DNA of 64,000 bases from Candidatus Levyibacteriota bacterium (GTDB lineage Bacteria > Patescibacteriota > Microgenomatia > Levybacterales > UBA12049), in NCBI GenBank assembly GCA_043823085.1, contig JBDRBE010000004.1, positions 342,780 to 406,779 of the forward strand, in the 5' to 3' direction. Each line of letters starts with the position of its first letter. Within the stretch, counting starts at the first letter, position 1. Position numbers and translations under genes: made by a program. Below the pieces are notes generated by a model. That model worked only from the letters and a program-made list of their open reading frames with translations, was not told the origin of the DNA and searched no databases. Below are positions 4,031-64,000 of the stretch, in pieces.

Positions 4031-4081
4031 ATATCTTCCTATTCTATCATCTTGCCCTCAAAAATCAAGGGATACTAAATT

Positions 4082-4110
4082 AGCTTCGCAAGGCGACGCC
4101 TTGCGAAGCT
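4082..4110. repeat. 29-bp near-perfect palindrome AGCTTCGCAAGGCGACGCCTTGCGAAGCT. A second copy is inside folA at 62503-62531.
   Basis: Seen directly in the sequence. Intergenic, between the pepA start and tRNA-Leu. Confidence 0.6.
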
Positions 4111-4179
4111 AAAATTTGAATAGTGCCATCGAAGCCAATTAAAGTTAAAGCTTGTTATGTTATAATTATTCCAGTCTTA

Positions 4180-4265
4180 AGGGCAAGTGGCGGAACGGTA
4201 TACGCGTGAGTCTCAAAAACTCATGAGCTGAAAGGTTCATGTGGGTTCGAATCCCTCCTTGCCCA
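4180..4265 (+). tRNA. tRNA-Leu(CAA), type II with a long variable arm
   Basis: Acceptor GGGCAAG/CTTGCCC. D-arm GTGGCGGAACGGTATACGC is like bacterial tRNA-Leu. Anticodon stem TGAGT/ACTCA with loop CTCAAAA gives anticodon CAA. T-loop TTCGAAT. Discriminator A, with no encoded CCA. Confidence 0.8.
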
Positions 4266-4302
4266 CAAAAGAAAGGGTTGAATTTATTCAATATTTTCTA
4301 CA

Positions 4303-5160
4303 ATGATCTGGCTTTTATTTGCATTTTTAACAGCCCTTTTTGAGTCCTTAAAGGATATCTTAAGCAAACACAATCTCAAAAAGATTGACGAATATTCCGC
4401 TTCTTTGGCTTTCCGTTTATCTTTTGTTTTTCTCCTGCCATATTTATTATTTTCGAAAATCCCAACCCTCAATAATCTTTTTTTTATCGCTTTAATTTTT
4501 GCTGTTCCAATAAATATTGCAACCGCAATTCTTTATATGAAAGCGTTAAAGAATTCAGATGTATCATTGAGCATCCCCCTTACAGCTTTTACGCCTTTGT
4601 TTCTTTTAATCACTTCCCCTTTGATTATTCACGAATTTCCTTCTTTTTTAGGCCTTTTGGGGGTGCTTTTAATAGTTTTTGGTTCATATCTTCTAAACCT
4701 CCAAGAAAGACATAAAGGATTTTTTGTTCCTTTTAAGGCCTTACTTAAAGAGAAAGGCCCTCGCTTTATGCTCCTTGTCGCTTTTTTGTGGAGTATCGGT
4801 TCAAACTTCGATAAAATCGGAGTTTTAAATTCCTCCCCTATTTTTTGGGTCATTGCCGTAAATTTCTGCTCAACTTTAATTTTAATTCCAATTGTTTTCA
4901 AAAGAAATAAAAATGCTGCAATAACTCTTCCCAAAAACTTAAGTCTTCTCACAATAAGTCTTGCTAGCGCTTTAAGTTTGGCTTTCCAAATGACTGCAAT
5001 ATCCCTGGCTCTTGTCTCTTATGTTATTTCTATAAAAAGAACAAGTATCCTAATAACCATTATTTTAGGAGCGCTAGTATTTAGAGAAAAAGGCTTGAAA
5101 GAAAGATTAATTGGAGGCATAATAATGATTGCAGGCATCATTTTAATCGCATTTTCATAA
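4303..5160 (+). CDS. EamA/DMT family transporter
   Basis: 285 aa with about 10 TM helices and two EamA-like halves. Confidence 0.65.
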   Translation: MIWLLFAFLTALFESLKDILSKHNLKKIDEYSASLAFRLSFVFLLPYLLFSKIPTLNNLFFIALIFAVPINIATAILYMKALKNSDVSLSIPLTAFTPLFLLITSPLIIHEFPSFLGLLGVLLIVFGSYLLNLQERHKGFFVPFKALLKEKGPRFMLLVAFLWSIGSNFDKIGVLNSSPIFWVIAVNFCSTLILIPIVFKRNKNAAITLPKNLSLLTISLASALSLAFQMTAISLALVSYVISIKRTSILITIILGALVFREKGLKERLIGGIIMIAGIILIAFS

Positions 5161-5289
5161 GGTGACCAAGCTAGTTCACCTTAGAGGTGGTCTAGATAGG
5201 CCACCTCGCTCCTACTCCATCCCCTGCATTATTAAAATTTCTGTTGAAAGCAACAAAAAATATTTCGATTGGCTAAAAGGTCAAATTTC

Positions 5290-7400: not shown

Positions 7401-7898
7401 TACTTTTTCCAACTCCGCCGGTAAGCTTTCTTTTTTTACAACGTATTTGGAAACTGATTTTAACGAACTGTCAAGACCTGAATCTGCTTTAAGTTTATTT
7501 TCCTCACCGTAAAAAATAGCAACTTTCGGTTCAATATTGGTAAGAATCGACGGGTCAAACTTTTGGTCAACATGAATTATCGCAATATCATACCCTTTTG
7601 TTTCTGCTTTAATTTTTTCCAATTCCGATGATTTTCCCAAAATTAAACTTATTCCGTCTACAAAAAGATCATAGGTGTGATTAAGCGAAGAAACCTTGAC
7701 GCCGGAGAACTCATACTCCCCCGCTCCATTTATTAAAATCCGTGAACCTTCAACCTTAGACGAATCAAATTCGCAATCTTTTAGAAGTAAAACGGCATCG
7801 CTTGGTGTTTTTGTCTTTAACATTGAAGGGTCAACAAGAAGCGACGAATTTTTTCCTTTTATTCTTAAACAATTTTCTCCGACAAGTTGTATTTCCAT
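7383..7898 (-). CDS. hypothetical protein. It may have a degenerate metallo-beta-lactamase-fold-like N-terminus.
   Basis: 171-aa ORF. N-terminus MEIQLVGENCLRIKGKNSSLLVDP resembles short MBL-fold proteins, but the His motifs are absent. Confidence 0.3.
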   Translation of the reverse strand: MEIQLVGENCLRIKGKNSSLLVDPSMLKTKTPSDAVLLLKDCEFDSSKVEGSRILINGAGEYEFSGVKVSSLNHTYDLFVDGISLILGKSSELEKIKAETKGYDIAIIHVDQKFDPSILTNIEPKVAIFYGEENKLKADSGLDSSLKSVSKYVVKKESLPAELEKVLLASS

Positions 7899-11148: not shown

Positions 11149-11177
11149 TTGACAAGGAAAGTTTCTGTGGTATAAAC
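11149..11177 (+). promoter_or_regulatory. promoter TTGACA-N16-TGgTATAAA upstream of the RAYT gene. A near-identical copy sits at 11904-11931.
   Basis: ttgacaaggaaagtttctgtggtataaa compared with ttgacaaggaaaacttttgtggtatgat. Confidence 0.45.
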
Positions 11178-11184
11178 AACTATC

Positions 11185-11203
11185 ACACCCCCGAGGTGTA
11201 ACA
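11185..11203. repeat. REP-like hairpin (ACACCCCCGAGGTGTAACA), upstream flank of the RAYT gene
   Basis: Inverted repeat stem with a CCCGAGG loop. Same family as 11881-11902 and 33841-33877. Confidence 0.55.
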
Positions 11204-11212
11204 AGTACCATA

Positions 11213-11878
11213 ATGTGCTATTATTTAATTATGCCTTATCGAACAACTCCACTTGTTAATAACGGTCTTTATCATATATATAACCGTGGCGTGGAAAAAA
11301 GACAAATCTTTATGAAAGACCGAGATTATCAAAGATTTCTCCAAACTCTCTACTATTATCAGTTTAGCGGTCCTAAAGCTCGTTTTTCTACGCATAAGAA
11401 ATTCAAAAATAAAAATTTTGATAAAAATCCTAAAATCGTGGAAATTATCTGTTACTGTTTAATGCCAAACCATTTTCATTTATTACTGAAACAATTAAAG
11501 GATAATGGCATTCAGGAATTTTTGAGTAAAGTAGCAAATAGTTATGCAAAATATTTCAATACTAAGTACAAACGAGTTGGTCCACTTTTACAAGGTCAAT
11601 TCAAAGCGGTAACTGTAGAAACCGATGAACAATTAGTCCATTTATCAAGATACATACACCTAAATCCATTCACAGCTGAAATTACAAAAGATTGGGAGAA
11701 CTTTCCCTACTCTTCCATTCAAGAGTTTATTGAGGATACAACTTCCAAAATTTGCGCCATTGAACAAATTTTAAATTTATTTACAAATCAAGCAGGATAT
11801 AGATCGTTTATTTCCGATAACCAATCATACGCTTTGGAACTTAGTAAAATCCAACATCTTTTAATAGACGAAGAATAA
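11213..11878 (+). mobile_element. REP-associated tyrosine transposase (RAYT; IS200/IS605 TnpA-like Y1 HUH transposase)
   Basis: HUH motif in CYCLMPNHFHLLL. Conserved YHIYNRG, SYAKYFN, RVGPLLQGQFKA and the catalytic Tyr region RYIHLNP. Flanked on both sides by REP hairpins. Confidence 0.75.
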
Positions 11879-11880
11879 TT

Positions 11881-11902
11881 GTTACACTCCCGAGGTGTAA
11901 CA
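11881..11902. repeat. REP-like hairpin GTTACAC-TCCCGAG-GTGTAAC, downstream flank of the RAYT gene
   Basis: Perfect 7-bp stem. Followed by a duplicated TTGACA..TATGAT promoter. Confidence 0.6.
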
Positions 11903-11926
11903 GTTGACAAGGAAAACTTTTGTGGT

Positions 11927-12400
11927 ATGATACCTAGCATGCCATTTGCTCCTGTAGAAATAGCAACCATAAACCTTGCTAACGAGCTCCGTGAAGGAGA
12001 TAAATTGCGTGATGCAAAAAAAATAAGAGATGAACATGATAGCGCATGGAAGACTCTTGGCGGAAAATTTGGAATCGCTGTTACCGACGAACAAATGGTT
12101 AATGTATTAAAAGCAACGCTCAACATGTTGCGATTTGGTTTAGAACGAGGACTTGGTAGCCCTCCTTCCGAAAAAACTATCGAAGAATTAGAAAAGGCGC
12201 AGGATCTTAGTACCACAAAAGGAAGACAAGCTGCAAATGCGTTTTTTGAACGATTAGCAGGAATTTATGCATATAAAAAATATCCTCCTCTTGACCCAAT
12301 TGAGAACGAAAGAAAATGCATAGCATGTGAAATCGCAGCAATTTCTTTACGCAAACCTAGAGAATTTGACAAACCGCCTGTTTTAAAGTATACTCCTTAA
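11927..12400 (+). CDS. hypothetical protein
   Basis: The ORF track begins inside the REP/promoter. The likely start is MIPSMPF at 11927, after the duplicated promoter. Confidence 0.4.
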   Translation: MIPSMPFAPVEIATINLANELREGDKLRDAKKIRDEHDSAWKTLGGKFGIAVTDEQMVNVLKATLNMLRFGLERGLGSPPSEKTIEELEKAQDLSTTKGRQAANAFFERLAGIYAYKKYPPLDPIENERKCIACEIAAISLRKPREFDKPPVLKYTP

Positions 12401-33840: not shown

Positions 33841-33877
33841 TTGTTACACCTCTTGTTACACCTCGGGGGTGTAACAA
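33841..33877. repeat. REP-like hairpin TTGTTACACC-TCGGGGG-GTGTAACAA, with a partial extra half-copy
   Basis: Inverted orientation relative to the copies flanking the RAYT gene. Intergenic, between the fabZ-like gene and cysS. Confidence 0.6.
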
Positions 33878-36530: not shown

Positions 36531-36558
36531 CACTTAAATGATATATATCATTTAAGTG
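36531..36558. promoter_or_regulatory. 28-bp perfect palindrome CACTTAAATGATATATATCATTTAAGTG immediately 3' of the TrpR-like gene
   Basis: Seen directly in the sequence. A sister palindrome is at 37006-37033. Confidence 0.5.
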
Positions 36559-37005: not shown

Positions 37006-37041
37006 CACTTTAATGATATATATCATTAAAGTGGTTGTCAA
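37006..37041 (-). promoter_or_regulatory. 28-bp perfect palindrome CACTTTAATGATATATATCATTAAAGTG overlapping the promoter TTGACA-N17-TATCAT-N9-ATG of the TrpR-like gene (putative operator)
   Basis: The palindrome spans the promoter spacer and -10 and ends 2 nt before the start codon. Confidence 0.5.
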
Positions 37042-60714: not shown

Positions 60715-62073
60715 TTATGCTACGGGGAATTTGGAGCAAAGGCTTTTGACTTCTTTATTGATTAAAATTAATTTTTTATTTTTAATAACATTTGTTCTAA
60801 ATTCTTTCCAAAACTGTCCTCTTTCTTCTTTGTTTTGCGGAATCTGCGAGTTTCCTACCTCTTGACAAATTTCATTTATCCATTTGGCGATTTTTACCAT
60901 TTCTCTCTCCTTCATCCCCCGCGTAGTTATGGCAGGTGTTCCCAAACGAATTCCCGAAGGGTAAAACGGAGGCATCGGGTCATTTGGAACAGCGTTTTTA
61001 TTAACAACTATTCCCGCAATTTCTAAAGCCAAAGCCGCAGCCGCACCATTAACATTTTTATTTTTTAAATCTATTAAAAGCAAATGATTTTCTGTTGTAC
61101 CGCTTATTAAATTAAATCCATATCTTGTAAGTTCATCTGCCAGCGTTTTTGCATTTTTAACAATCTGCGCGCCGTATCTTTTGAAAGATGTTAAACTTGC
61201 TTCATAAAGAGCAACGGCAATTGCGGCAGTTTGATTGTCATGCGGGCCTCCCTGCAATCCTGGAAAAACCGCTTTATTAATTTTTTCTCCAAGCTCGGGA
61301 TCTTTTTTTAGTCCTTTATCTGTAACCATTATCATCGCTCCTCTTGGACCTCTCAAAGTTTTATGTGTTGTCGTCATAACTATATGGGCATATGGGATAG
61401 GACTTGGATGAACGCCGGCAACAATAAGACCGGTAATATGGGAAATATCGGCAAGCAAATATGCTCCGACTTTATCGGCAATTTGTCCGAATCTTTTAAA
61501 ATTGATGATTCTAGGATAAGCTGTATAACCGCAGACAATAATTTTTGGCTTTTCTTTAACTGCCAATTTTTCAAGTTCATCATAATCCAACAAACCATCT
61601 TTACCAAGCTGATACTGAACTGTCTTAAAATATTTTCCCGAAAAAGAGACCGGCGCACCGTGAGTTAAATGCCCACCGAATGCCAGAGAAAGCCCCATAA
61701 TTTTATCCTTTAAAGGCTCTAAAAGCGCAAAGTAAATCGCTGTGTTGGCCGGAGAACCGGAATATGGCTGAACGTTTACATATGGAACGCCGAAAAGTTT
61801 TTTAGCCCTTTCTTGAGCCAAAATTTCTACTTCGTCGGCAAACTTTTGTCCTTGATAATAACGTTTTTTTGGATACCCTTCGGAATATTTATAGTTTAAA
61901 ACGCTACCCAATGCCTGAAGCATTGCTTTGCTTAAATGATTGTTCGATGGAATCATTTCTAATGTATTTTGAACTCGTTTTTCCTCGTCTTTGATAAGCT
62001 TGTAAATTTTGGGGTCGGTTTTTTGCAATGCTTTCACAAAATAGATAATACTAATAATTTTAAAAATAATCAA
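60715..62073 (-). CDS. glyA: serine hydroxymethyltransferase
   Basis: PLP motif VMTTTHKTLRGPRG and the overall SHMT sequence. Confidence 0.9.
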   Translation of the reverse strand: MIIFKIISIIYFVKALQKTDPKIYKLIKDEEKRVQNTLEMIPSNNHLSKAMLQALGSVLNYKYSEGYPKKRYYQGQKFADEVEILAQERAKKLFGVPYVNVQPYSGSPANTAIYFALLEPLKDKIMGLSLAFGGHLTHGAPVSFSGKYFKTVQYQLGKDGLLDYDELEKLAVKEKPKIIVCGYTAYPRIINFKRFGQIADKVGAYLLADISHITGLIVAGVHPSPIPYAHIVMTTTHKTLRGPRGAMIMVTDKGLKKDPELGEKINKAVFPGLQGGPHDNQTAAIAVALYEASLTSFKRYGAQIVKNAKTLADELTRYGFNLISGTTENHLLLIDLKNKNVNGAAAALALEIAGIVVNKNAVPNDPMPPFYPSGIRLGTPAITTRGMKEREMVKIAKWINEICQEVGNSQIPQNKEERGQFWKEFRTNVIKNKKLILINKEVKSLCSKFPVA

Positions 62074-62213
62074 GGGCTAGTTTTTAGAATCTTTGATGTG
62101 AGAAGTGGGATTTTCTTGAACTTGACCGTTTTGATATCTAGATATCTAGAATTCAAGAAATCGAAGATTCAAGATCAAAAATGTCAAAAATATCTCACGT
62201 CAAAAATTCTAGT
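62074..62213. repeat. palindromic intergenic element, a copy lacking the CAGCTG core
   Basis: Termini TAGAATCTTTGATGTGAGAAGTGGGATTTTCTTGAACTTGA and ATATCTCACGTCAAAAATTCTAG. Aligns with the reverse complement of the 43544 copy. Confidence 0.55.
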
Positions 62214-62744
62214 TCATCTCTCCAATTCCAAAAACTTATATTTATGTCCTTCCCACTTTCCTTCTTTTTCAAAAACTATTTTTTTGAATATTGATTCGTA
62301 TTCCGGGAAAAAAGTGTCGGCGTCTTTAACAGCATCTACAATTGTTAAATATAATTTATCCGTTAAACCAATCGCCTGCTGATAAATCTGTCCCCCCCCG
62401 ATAATAAATATTTCTTTTTTATTGTCATGCCAAACTTGTTTCGGCATCTCACGAGATTCTGAAGCCATTTTCAACGCTTCATCCAAAGAACTCGTAATTT
62501 TTAGCTTCGCAAGGCGTCGCCTTGCGAAGCTAGAATCTCGCGAAATAACTATGTTCGTCCTATTGGGAAGAGGATGGCCAATCGACTCGAAGGTTTTTCG
62601 CCCCATTATAATAGTATGGCCACATGTTTTTTCGCGAAACCGCTTCATATCTTCGGGGATTTGCCACAACAATTTATTATCGTTCCCAATTCCTCTGTCT
62701 TTTGAAATCGCTACGATGATGCTGATTTTTGAATTATGAATCAT
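62214..62744 (-). CDS. folA: dihydrofolate reductase, carrying an in-frame palindrome insertion
   Basis: DHFR motifs (IVAISKDRGIG, LLW, MGRKTFESIG). The 29-bp palindrome at 62503-62531 encodes SSFARRRLAKLKI. Confidence 0.8.
   Translation of the reverse strand: MIHNSKISIIVAISKDRGIGNDNKLLWQIPEDMKRFREKTCGHTIIMGRKTFESIGHPLPNRTNIVISRDSSFARRRLAKLKITSSLDEALKMASESREMPKQVWHDNKKEIFIIGGGQIYQQAIGLTDKLYLTIVDAVKDADTFFPEYESIFKKIVFEKEGKWEGHKYKFLELER
62503..62531. repeat. 29-bp palindrome AGCTTCGCAAGGCGTCGCCTTGCGAAGCT inside folA. Sister copy at 4082-4110.
   Basis: Seen directly in the sequence. GC-rich in an AT-rich gene. Confidence 0.6.
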
Positions 62745-63229
62745 AAATTATGAATTTTTGAACTTTTAATCAAACCGTTTGAATCGCTAAAAAACTTAAT
62801 TGCATCCTCCACCGTTTGTTTAACATTTGCCAATAATTGATATTTATCTAAATCTGACGTTTTTACCCATTCCGGAATTGTTTCTTCCGATTCTTTTATT
62901 TCCCCTGAAAATTTTAAACAAAGAAAAACATGCCAGGAAAAATTTACAACTCCCTGTTTTCTTTTAATTGCCGCATAATAAATATTATTAGGATAATCAA
63001 CAAATGAAATTCCTGTTAACCCCGTTTCTTCTTTTAATTCTCTAATTGCCGTATCTTTTTCTGTTTCACTCTCATCAACTTTTCCGCCGGGCAAACCATA
63101 AATTCCTGTCAAATGTCCTGCTTTTTGGGTATGTCTTACAAGCAAAACTTTATCATCTTTGATAAGTAATGCCGCCGCTGATAAAACAATATTTTTAAGT
63201 TTTTGATTTTTCGTAGAAGCCTCCTGCAA
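62741..63229 (-). CDS. NUDIX hydrolase
   Basis: Nudix box GGKVDESETEKDTAIRELKEETGL. Confidence 0.7.
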   Translation of the reverse strand: MQEASTKNQKLKNIVLSAAALLIKDDKVLLVRHTQKAGHLTGIYGLPGGKVDESETEKDTAIRELKEETGLTGISFVDYPNNIYYAAIKRKQGVVNFSWHVFLCLKFSGEIKESEETIPEWVKTSDLDKYQLLANVKQTVEDAIKFFSDSNGLIKSSKIHNL

Positions 63230-64000
63230 CAGTTAATTCACCTTTTAAAACAGGATAAGGATCGTAATTTTCCAAAGTCACGTGTTCCACGCGAAAATCG
63301 TCAATTTCTTTTACGCCTTTATCGATTGTTACTTTTGGAAAAGGACGGGGTTTTCTTTTTAGTTGTTCTTTCACTTGTTCAATATGATTTTTATAAATAT
63401 GCGCATCGCCAAAAGTATGAACAAACTCTCCCGGCTTAGCTTTTAAAACTTGAGCAATTATTATTGCTAGTAAAGCATAACTTGCAATATTAAAAGGAAC
63501 TCCCAAAAATAAATCGGCACTTCGCTGATAAAGCTGTAAATAAACTTTTCCGCCTTTCAAACTAATTTGGTACATGTTGTGACAGATTGGAAAACGCGAG
63601 GCGTCTTTGTATTCTGCCATTTTGTAGAGATATTCCGGATTCCAGGAATTCACAATTGCATTACGGGCATATTTATCTTCCCGAAGTTCACCAATCGCCC
63701 ATTTTAACTGATCTATTGTTCTTTTTGTTCTTGTTGGCCATCTTCTCCATAATTCTCCATAAATTTTAGGAAGATTCCCCCACTTTTTTGCAAATTTATT
63801 ATCGTCTTTAATTTTTTGAATAAACTCCTCTTTTGCCATTTGTTGATTCGTTGTTTTATTGATTTGTTGATTGTAAATTTTGTACGGGTAATCGTCCCAG
63901 ATATGAACATTGTTATCAACAAGATATTTGATATTTGATTGCCCCGACATAAACCAATAAAGTTCATGCAAAACCCCTTTCCAGTAAACTTTTTTAGTGG
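63195..64000 (-). CDS. thyA: thymidylate synthase, N-terminus outside the window
   Basis: HELYWFMSG, RRWPTR..P and the C-terminal ThyA motifs. Contains a degenerate QQINKTTNQQ insert from TTGTTGATT-like repeats at 63841-63880. Confidence 0.85.
   Translation of the reverse strand, partial: TKKVYWKGVLHELYWFMSGQSNIKYLVDNNVHIWDDYPYKIYNQQINKTTNQQMAKEEFIQKIKDDNKFAKKWGNLPKIYGELWRRWPTRTKRTIDQLKWAIGELREDKYARNAIVNSWNPEYLYKMAEYKDASRFPICHNMYQISLKGGKVYLQLYQRSADLFLGVPFNIASYALLAIIIAQVLKAKPGEFVHTFGDAHIYKNHIEQVKEQLKRKPRPFPKVTIDKGVKEIDDFRVEHVTLENYDPYPVLKGELTVAGGFYEKSKT

Follow-up and report, generated by a model that had tools for sequence, protein, structure and literature searches.

The closest described systems are the REP and REPIN repeats with their RAYT transposases, among them the REP/BIME repeats of Escherichia coli with TnpA-REP (PDB 4er8) and the REPINs of Pseudomonas, in which short G+C-rich hairpins are dispersed through the genome, many of them at gene 3' ends. 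In the REPtrons of Proteobacteria, the repeats occur as genome-specific variants and a Y1/HUH gene is bracketed by the same repeat, which sometimes overlaps the ends of the gene, whilst REPs within genes, and REPs that overlap the ends of RAYT genes, are on record from other phyla (PMC3733652). Classical RAYT-linked REPs are defined by a GTAG (or CGTC) tetranucleotide tag at one end (Di Nocera 2013), and Di Nocera et al. equated RPE-4 and RPE-6 with REP-type repeats (PMC3733652). In Rickettsia, RPE palindromes lie both in frame within intact genes and in intergenic DNA of a reduced, A+T-rich genome. Classical RPE-1 is much longer than the element described here, adds tens of residues to its host proteins and is not known to have a linked transposase. 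The insertion sequences of the IS200/IS605 group (IS608, ISDra2) encode an enzyme of the HUH fold with a catalytic tyrosine and carry gene-flanking hairpins that are recognised as single-stranded DNA. Small G+C-rich palindromes in an A+T-rich genome, occasionally in frame (var1), are also known as the GC clusters of yeast mitochondrial DNA.

The window analysed here, a 64-kb stretch of DNA, contains the 29-bp palindrome AGCTTCGCAAGGCG(A)CGCCTTGCGAAGCT and, as its exact reverse complement with a central T, a second copy within folA (Table 1). These two were the only matches at up to three mismatches, a relaxed scan that tolerated up to four substitutions in each arm added none within the 64-kb window, and 100 dinucleotide-preserving shuffles yielded zero matches, in agreement with an earlier note that had reported one intergenic copy and one in-frame copy inside folA. 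In one relative orientation the copies are identical over 34 bp (T + 29 + AAAA), and with their flanks included, pairing reaches 16 bp in copy 1 and 18 positions, 94% complementary, in copy 2; the 29-bp core has a stem of 13-17 bp. The 29-mer has a G+C content of 62% against 37.7% for the window, and as RNA it is predicted to form a hairpin of -25 to -27.5 kcal/mol. The folA copy and its intergenic counterpart, 58 kb apart, do not differ in sequence, which implies that copying or gene conversion was recent. With pepA beginning on one side (4030, minus strand) and tRNA-Leu(CAA) on the other (4181-4266, plus strand), copy 1 occupies a divergent promoter region and not a 3' end, and a terminator or operator reading was rejected on that position. 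A terminator scan flagged copy 1 weakly and on the minus strand only, where no gene is transcribed towards it, and left copy 2, inside an ORF, unflagged; an intrinsic terminator, in the sense of a G+C-rich stem with a T-run behind it where a transcription unit ends, was accordingly rejected for both. Scanning the window against Rfam at the gathering threshold returned tRNA only, with no match to the palindrome, and no copy was detected in the viral contigs searched.

Table 1. Features of the 64-kb window, and net length changes in host proteins measured by alignment to solved structures and orthologues
Feature	Position	Strand	Net change in host protein	Remarks
Copy 1, REP-like palindrome	4080..4112	.		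core 4082-4110 = AGCTTCGCAAGGCGACGCCTTGCGAAGCT; TT/AA flanks give a 16-bp stem; intergenic
RAYT-like Y1/HUH transposase ORF	11213..11878	plus		motifs MPNHFHLL and RYIHLNP; tblastn E = 9e-33
folA, DHFR, 176 aa, host of copy 2	62214..62744	minus		intact ORF; 100% identity to a Candidatus Levyibacteriota MAG protein encoded on a 431-kb contig
Copy 2, palindrome, centre T	62503..62531	.		in frame in folA; SFARRRLAKL, DHFR residues 72-81
ThrRS			0 aa	
M16 peptidase			0 aa	
ArgRS			-1 to +2 aa	against two bacterial structures
DHFR			+3 aa	
RibD			+4 to +7 aa	left arm duplicated
Copper ATPase			+5 aa	
PfkB kinase			+12 aa	against a solved homologue
ComEC			+12 aa	against a solved homologue

Both copies belong to a family of REP-like repeats of Microgenomates/CPR, the named relatives being Microgenomates and the window itself part of a Levybacteria MAG. 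The family consensus, (Y)TAGCYTCGCAAGG-N5-CCTTGCGARGCTA(R), describes a unit of 29-36 bp with a 12-bp G+C-rich stem (AGCYTCGCAAGG/CCTTGCGARGCT), a variable 5-nt centre and T...A-rich flanks. In 10^12 bases, the arm pattern would be expected to turn up by chance less than once (an estimate). A scan of public metagenomes with the outer arms fixed (AGCYTCGCAAG-N7-CTTGCGARGCT) recovered at least 120 loci with at least 139 copies, and among the matches listed the loci ranged in G+C from 0.33 to 0.53. The earlier note had proposed, as one of two alternatives, a mini mobile palindrome with RPE-like behaviour, a proposal supported by these related CPR copies (at least 139, about a third of them in frame in genes) and by a closest folA orthologue that is without the element. 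The stem pairs co-vary, which indicates that the hairpin is maintained: among the matches listed, the 4/26 pair is T-A 86 times and C-G 33 times, which makes 119 of 125 unique copies Watson-Crick paired against 73.7 expected, and position 12/18 is paired in 122 of 125. In the flanks of the same matches, position -1 is T in 84% and position -2 is T in 54%, C in 26% and G in 9%, so that the element ends as (Y)TAGC...GCTA(R), with YTAG on both sides forming part of the stem. The centre is usually common to all copies on one contig, and genome-specific variants were recovered, such as GCGACGC, present twice in the window, and the three identical imperfect copies of locus L137. Locus L138 packs 10 copies into 20.7 kb, most of them at gene 3' ends; here asymmetric arms (AGCCTCAAAAGG / CCTTGCGAAGCT) are constant and the 5-nt loop occurs both ways (GGACG, CGTCC), which suggests loop inversion independent of the arms.

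Using the 21-nt core, a scan of species-representative genomes gave 10 loci in several phyla, including three in Patescibacteria and two in Dehalococcoidales. The matches in these two groups have AGCT/AGCC ends in common, those of Dehalococcoidales showing compensatory AGCC...GGCT ends. The palindrome family, or a convergent one, may reach beyond CPR. The Dehalococcoidales MAGs carry the core palindrome at 1643-1669 (L002) and at 5152-5178 and 7546-7572 (L005, with two to three copies in 8 kb), and no Y1 transposase is present in either 8-kb locus. Matches in Anaeromyxobacter, Blastocatellales, Akkermansia and Prevotellaceae were set aside as probably unrelated G+C-rich hairpins. A further sequence, AGCCTCGCAAG-TAAGAAA-CTTGCGAGGCT, shares the outer arms and has an unpaired 7-nt centre (L038 656, L087 6180, L089 705); it always occurs in the same small-ORF context, at least L087 coming from a human gut metagenome, and it is probably a separate hairpin family.

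A link between the palindrome and a RAYT-type transposase emerged from its host ORFs, some of which carry the motifs NHFHLL and RYIHxNP. These transposases match Pfam Y1_Tnp above its cutoff (E = 1e-9 to 1e-12), whilst their sole NCBIfam match, REP_Tyr_transpos, scores 35-38 bits, far below the 80-bit cutoff. By tblastn, a transposase gene adjoins the palindrome in 19 of the 120 loci listed, and among the matches listed 28 of 139 copies (20%) lie inside a Y1 transposase match or within 100 nt of one; such matches with their 100-nt margins make up 2.45% of the locus DNA. In locus L137, the first of the three identical copies precedes the ATG by 31 nt, the second falls within the sequence encoding the C-terminus and the third spans the stop codon, and this bracketing is the REPtron arrangement. 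Residues H95, H97, Y155 and H157 of the transposase are invariant in 38 sequences, and the native sequence at its C-terminus, AS(Q/K)GxALRSY, corresponds to frame 1 of the element. The enzyme family comprises 7,227 proteins at E <= 1e-20, under names that include Gottesman- and Shapirobacteria and "Patescibacteria", with one JGI record naming RayT. No match to PDB was obtained by sequence; with an AF2 model (pLDDT 87), the best Foldseek match was 4er8 (E = 3e-5), a complex of the REP-associated transposase of E. coli with a REP hairpin, followed by the TnpA of ISDra2 and IS608. Across the sampled loci the transposase genes are 50-73% identical and not identical copies. Two paralogues in L083 match one and the same RAYT query, at 60% and 50% identity. 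Among the matches listed there are about five solo hairpins to each transposase gene, no near-identical transposase genes occur within one locus in the 762 kb of loci listed, and no TnpB gene was noticed beside a transposase gene in the inspected loci.

The window has a RAYT-like ORF of its own (Table 1), of the same enzyme family and about 34% identical to the palindrome-linked transposases. It is probably not the cognate enzyme of the 29-bp palindrome, because it is flanked by a different hairpin, ACACYCCCGAGGTGTAAC; no transposase bracketed by the 29-bp palindrome is present within the 64-kb window. The flanking hairpin represents a second REP-like family, (GT)TACAC(C/T)CCCGAGGTGTAAC, which brackets the ORF at 11185-11202 and 11884-11901 and has a third copy at 33855-33875 between two minus-strand genes. 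Beside the bracketing copies lies a duplicated, strong sigma-70-like block, TTGACAAGGAAA..TGTGGTATRA (11149-11175 and 11904-11930). Elsewhere in the window, two perfect 28-bp A+T-rich palindromes, CACTT(T/A)AATGATAT|ATATCATT(A/T)AAGTG, are found 475 bp apart (36531-36558 and 37006-37033) and could be operator-like or terminal repeats.

The unit is free of stop codons in frames 0 and 1 on either strand, where it encodes SFARxxLAKL or ASQGxALRSY, whilst a TAG arises in frame 2 from the flanking T. Among the matches listed, 44 of 127 unique copies (about 35%) lie inside ORFs of at least 150 aa, and a stricter, separate count of long ORFs placed 21 copies in frame 0, 23 in frame 1 and two in frame 2. 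Host genes include those for ThrRS, ArgRS, a copper ATPase (CopA), RibD, topoisomerase I (TopA), an M16 peptidase, a PfkB kinase and ComEC. In the listed matches, the purine-rich side of the loop, which avoids Pro codons, is on the sense strand in 21 in-ORF copies vs 2, compared with 9 vs 11 next to gene 3' ends; being specific to in-ORF copies, this orientation bias points to translation of the coding copies. The remaining 83 of the 127 unique copies listed are extragenic, 41 of them abutting a gene 3' end, with 12 supplying the TAG of the upstream gene and five supplying a stop at the far border. Selection at the RNA level was rejected, as G-U wobbles on the sense strand are without bias (2 vs 2).

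In the window, copy 2 is read within DHFR as S-F-A-R-R-R-L-A-K-L, and a peptide spanning it would read ...RDSSFARRRLAKLK... Although 29 cannot be divided by three, the folA frame is kept because the net change relative to element-free orthologues is +9 nt (+3 aa) and not +29. The closest orthologue (P0002, 76% identical by alignment) is without the palindrome and has the loop DYKPEGV, which resembles the loops of other element-free DHFR homologues. Of 120 homologues surveyed, 11 have a related palindrome at this loop; judged outside the loop, the nearest neighbour of most of these bearers is element-free. An 18-residue loop with no SFARRRLAKL-like motif is found in 79 of the 109 element-free homologues, whereas the loop is 21 residues long in nine of the 11 bearers, that is, three additional residues and not 10. 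Together with the likeness of the P0002 loop to those of element-free homologues, the prevalence of the 18-residue loop indicates that absence is ancestral and that the element was apparently gained several times independently. The earlier note had asked whether the folA segment is conserved across orthologues at the protein level, and the answer is mixed: palindromes do recur in the same loop in those 11 homologues, but they look like independent gains and not like protein-level conservation. In Microgenomates DHFR genes the centres of these palindromes differ yet stay complementary, as in ...AAGGT-CTC-ACCTT... (L011) and the perfect ...AAGACC-A-GGTCTT... (L014), and the L013 loop holds a decayed copy. 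The folA element partly replaces the native DHFR loop and is not a clean insertion; on the proposed course of events, folA would have gained its copy once its lineage had parted from that of the closest sampled relative, and the native 7-residue loop would have been replaced with a net gain of three residues. An AF2 model of the protein (mean pLDDT 87.9) places the element residues in a predicted short helix between two strands, at a pLDDT of about 78 vs 93-94 for neighbouring blocks. The gene stands in a minus-strand group of glyA, folA, a NUDIX ORF and thyA (60715-63971); in the related Microgenomates loci L011 and L013, thyA, folA and glyA are adjacent, with dCTP deaminase or dUTPase-like genes upstream.

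Length changes in the other host proteins range from none to 12 added residues (Table 1). In ThrRS, SFARGGLARL falls exactly over native SYAQKINEEL; in an alignment of 120 orthologues, the first 60 are free of gaps at this site apart from one 2-residue deletion. The RibD gene (L046, ~5033-5073) carries a tandem duplicate of the left arm (AGCCTCGCAAGt AGCCTCGCAAGG...), giving SLAS-SLARRGLARL, which may reflect slippage or a second event, whilst the change in TopA lies in a variable region and is unscorable. Pure insertion as a general rule is ruled out by the near-zero changes against structures and orthologues, and pure same-length replacement by the two +12-aa cases. The unit can add about 36 nt, and host codons can also be lost at constrained positions, in the same event or by later trimming. 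Relative to the window, the closest sampled locus reaches at most ~72% identity in long blastn alignments and ~84% in short ones; as no sampled locus is closely related to the window, no empty site with high flank identity was found among them. A more speculative reading, which we regard as doubtful, is that the hairpin is installed by conversion-like replacement of about 8-10 host codons, recurrently at the same sites and with little or no length change. The recurrent sites would be the DHFR loop in several lineages, the ThrRS helix and the C-terminus of the transposase itself, and the replacement might be guided by short repeat similarity, for example between native S-Y-A-Q and the element's S-F-A-R. 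If true, it would constitute an undescribed, RAYT-linked route into essential genes where intergenic space is nearly absent.

We consider it likely that the palindrome is a REP/RAYT-type mobile element of Microgenomates/CPR with RPE-like in-frame behaviour. By analogy with E. coli RAYT and the TnpA of IS200/IS605, a RAYT-type enzyme would recognise the folded hairpin in single-stranded DNA and cut and rejoin at its foot, and the hairpin would thereby be copied or moved to new A/T-flanked sites. Copies landing in tolerant protein loops or helices could then persist, as two of the three frames are without a stop on either strand. Weighing against this reading are the mere two copies in the window and the lack there of a transposase that they bracket, the missing GTAG tag, the low NCBIfam score, the PDB sequence search without a match, the failure to find an empty site close enough to define the inserted unit, and host length changes of 0 to +12 aa, which simple insertion would not predict. 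We know of no experimental demonstration of a RAYT transposing a REP. Within the literature searched, no paper linking REP/RAYT repeats to CPR was found, the nearest mention being a RAYT annotation in an archaeon only.

Against this stands the view that the hairpins are not selfish DNA but signals maintained by the host for mRNA 3'-end stability, termination, stop codons or chromosome structure, with gene conversion or a domesticated RAYT writing the copies or keeping them uniform, a process that would account for both same-length replacement and the repeated use of the DHFR loop. Such maintenance accords with the extragenic copies listed that abut a gene 3' end (41 of 83) or provide an upstream TAG (n = 12) or far-border stop (n = 5), with the identity or near-identity of copies within a genome, with host lengths unchanged in ThrRS and the M16 peptidase and shifted by -1 to +2 residues in ArgRS, and with the recurrence in one DHFR loop. 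It is nonetheless improbable, given that window copy 1 sits in a divergent promoter region and not at a 3' end, that in-ORF copies occupy unrelated positions of unrelated proteins, that PfkB kinase and ComEC contain plain +12-aa insertions, and that most orthologues are missing the element. Still harder to sustain is a specific cis-regulatory role for the folA copy in the thyA-folA-glyA transcript, along the lines of the RNA structure or processing site that the earlier note gave as its first alternative. The hairpin within the mRNA would be very stable, at the predicted energy given above, and same-loop hairpins recur in 11 of 120 DHFR homologues, but the identical sequence lies between pepA and tRNA-Leu, the family is also found in ThrRS, ArgRS, CopA, RibD, ComEC, TopA, kinases and intergenic DNA, the closest orthologue is without the hairpin, Rfam gave no match and G-U wobbles show no sense-strand bias (2 vs 2), all of which make this role very improbable.

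It is scarcely credible that SFARRRLAKL is a conserved functional DHFR peptide with an incidental palindrome, or that the palindrome is an assembly artefact. Similar peptides do appear in several DHFRs; however, the 18-residue loop of 79 of the 109 element-free homologues has no such motif, the DNA is identical to the intergenic copy, and the centres vary between lineages yet stay complementary, whilst an artefact is contradicted by the same elements in independent ENA, JGI, NCBI and Logan assemblies. The loop survey, the intergenic copy, the complementary centres and the independent assemblies refute this reading.

Set beside the described systems, the putative mobile palindrome of CPR is a REP/RAYT system by function and architecture, though not a plain member. 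Across the sampled loci it shares with REP/REPIN and RAYT systems the dispersed short G+C-rich hairpins, many at gene 3' ends, and with the REPtrons of Proteobacteria the genome-specific variants, the Y1/HUH gene with copies of one repeat on both sides, in some cases running into the gene ends, and an enzyme whose best structural match is 4er8. It differs from REPs in having no GTAG/CGTC tag (G precedes TAG in 9% of flanks among the matches listed), in a YTAG end that pairs with the other end, in its many perfect palindromes and the roughly 35% of listed copies inside ORFs, in one copy that makes up part of the conserved sequence encoding the C-terminus of the transposase itself, AS(Q/K)GxALRSY, in hosts that are CPR bacteria with very small genomes, and in an enzyme that scores under the NCBIfam RAYT cutoff. 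The absence of the GTAG tag and the score below that cutoff are the reasons why we do not file it as a plain REP member. With the RPEs of Rickettsia it has in common palindromes both intergenic and in frame in intact genes of a reduced A+T-rich genome, including ORFs whose orthologues lack the element (DHFR P0001 vs P0002; PfkB, ComEC). The RPE likeness suggested by the earlier note holds for the in-frame behaviour but not for size or, probably, sequence; the element is a hairpin of REP type, and the Y1 transposase to which it is linked is of RAYT type. Its 29-36 bp unit adds 0 to 12 residues, often replacing native ones, and it is not filed as an RPE, being set apart by this length and by its CPR host. 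With IS200/IS605 the system shares the enzyme fold, the HUH motif and catalytic tyrosine and, by analogy, gene-flanking hairpins that would be recognised as single-stranded DNA; in CPR, however, the hairpins far outnumber the transposase genes, and an IS200/IS605 insertion sequence was rejected as no near-identical units of gene and ends occur within the loci listed (762 kb, a limited sampling). The GC clusters of yeast belong to a different genetic system with no Y1 transposase and no sequence relation to the CPR palindrome.

CPR genomes are among the smallest and most tightly packed bacterial ones, yet the repeat and its transposase are widespread in them, and the repeat lies inside essential genes, including those of DHFR, threonyl- and arginyl-tRNA synthetases and topoisomerase I. 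For annotation, the element accounts for the recurrent SFARxxLAKL and ASQGxALRSY peptides and the repeat-supplied stop codons of CPR proteomes. With a candidate enzyme at hand, REP mobility becomes testable. As a mobile element, the palindrome would represent a second, independent and much larger natural case, after Rickettsia, of selfish DNA in proteins.
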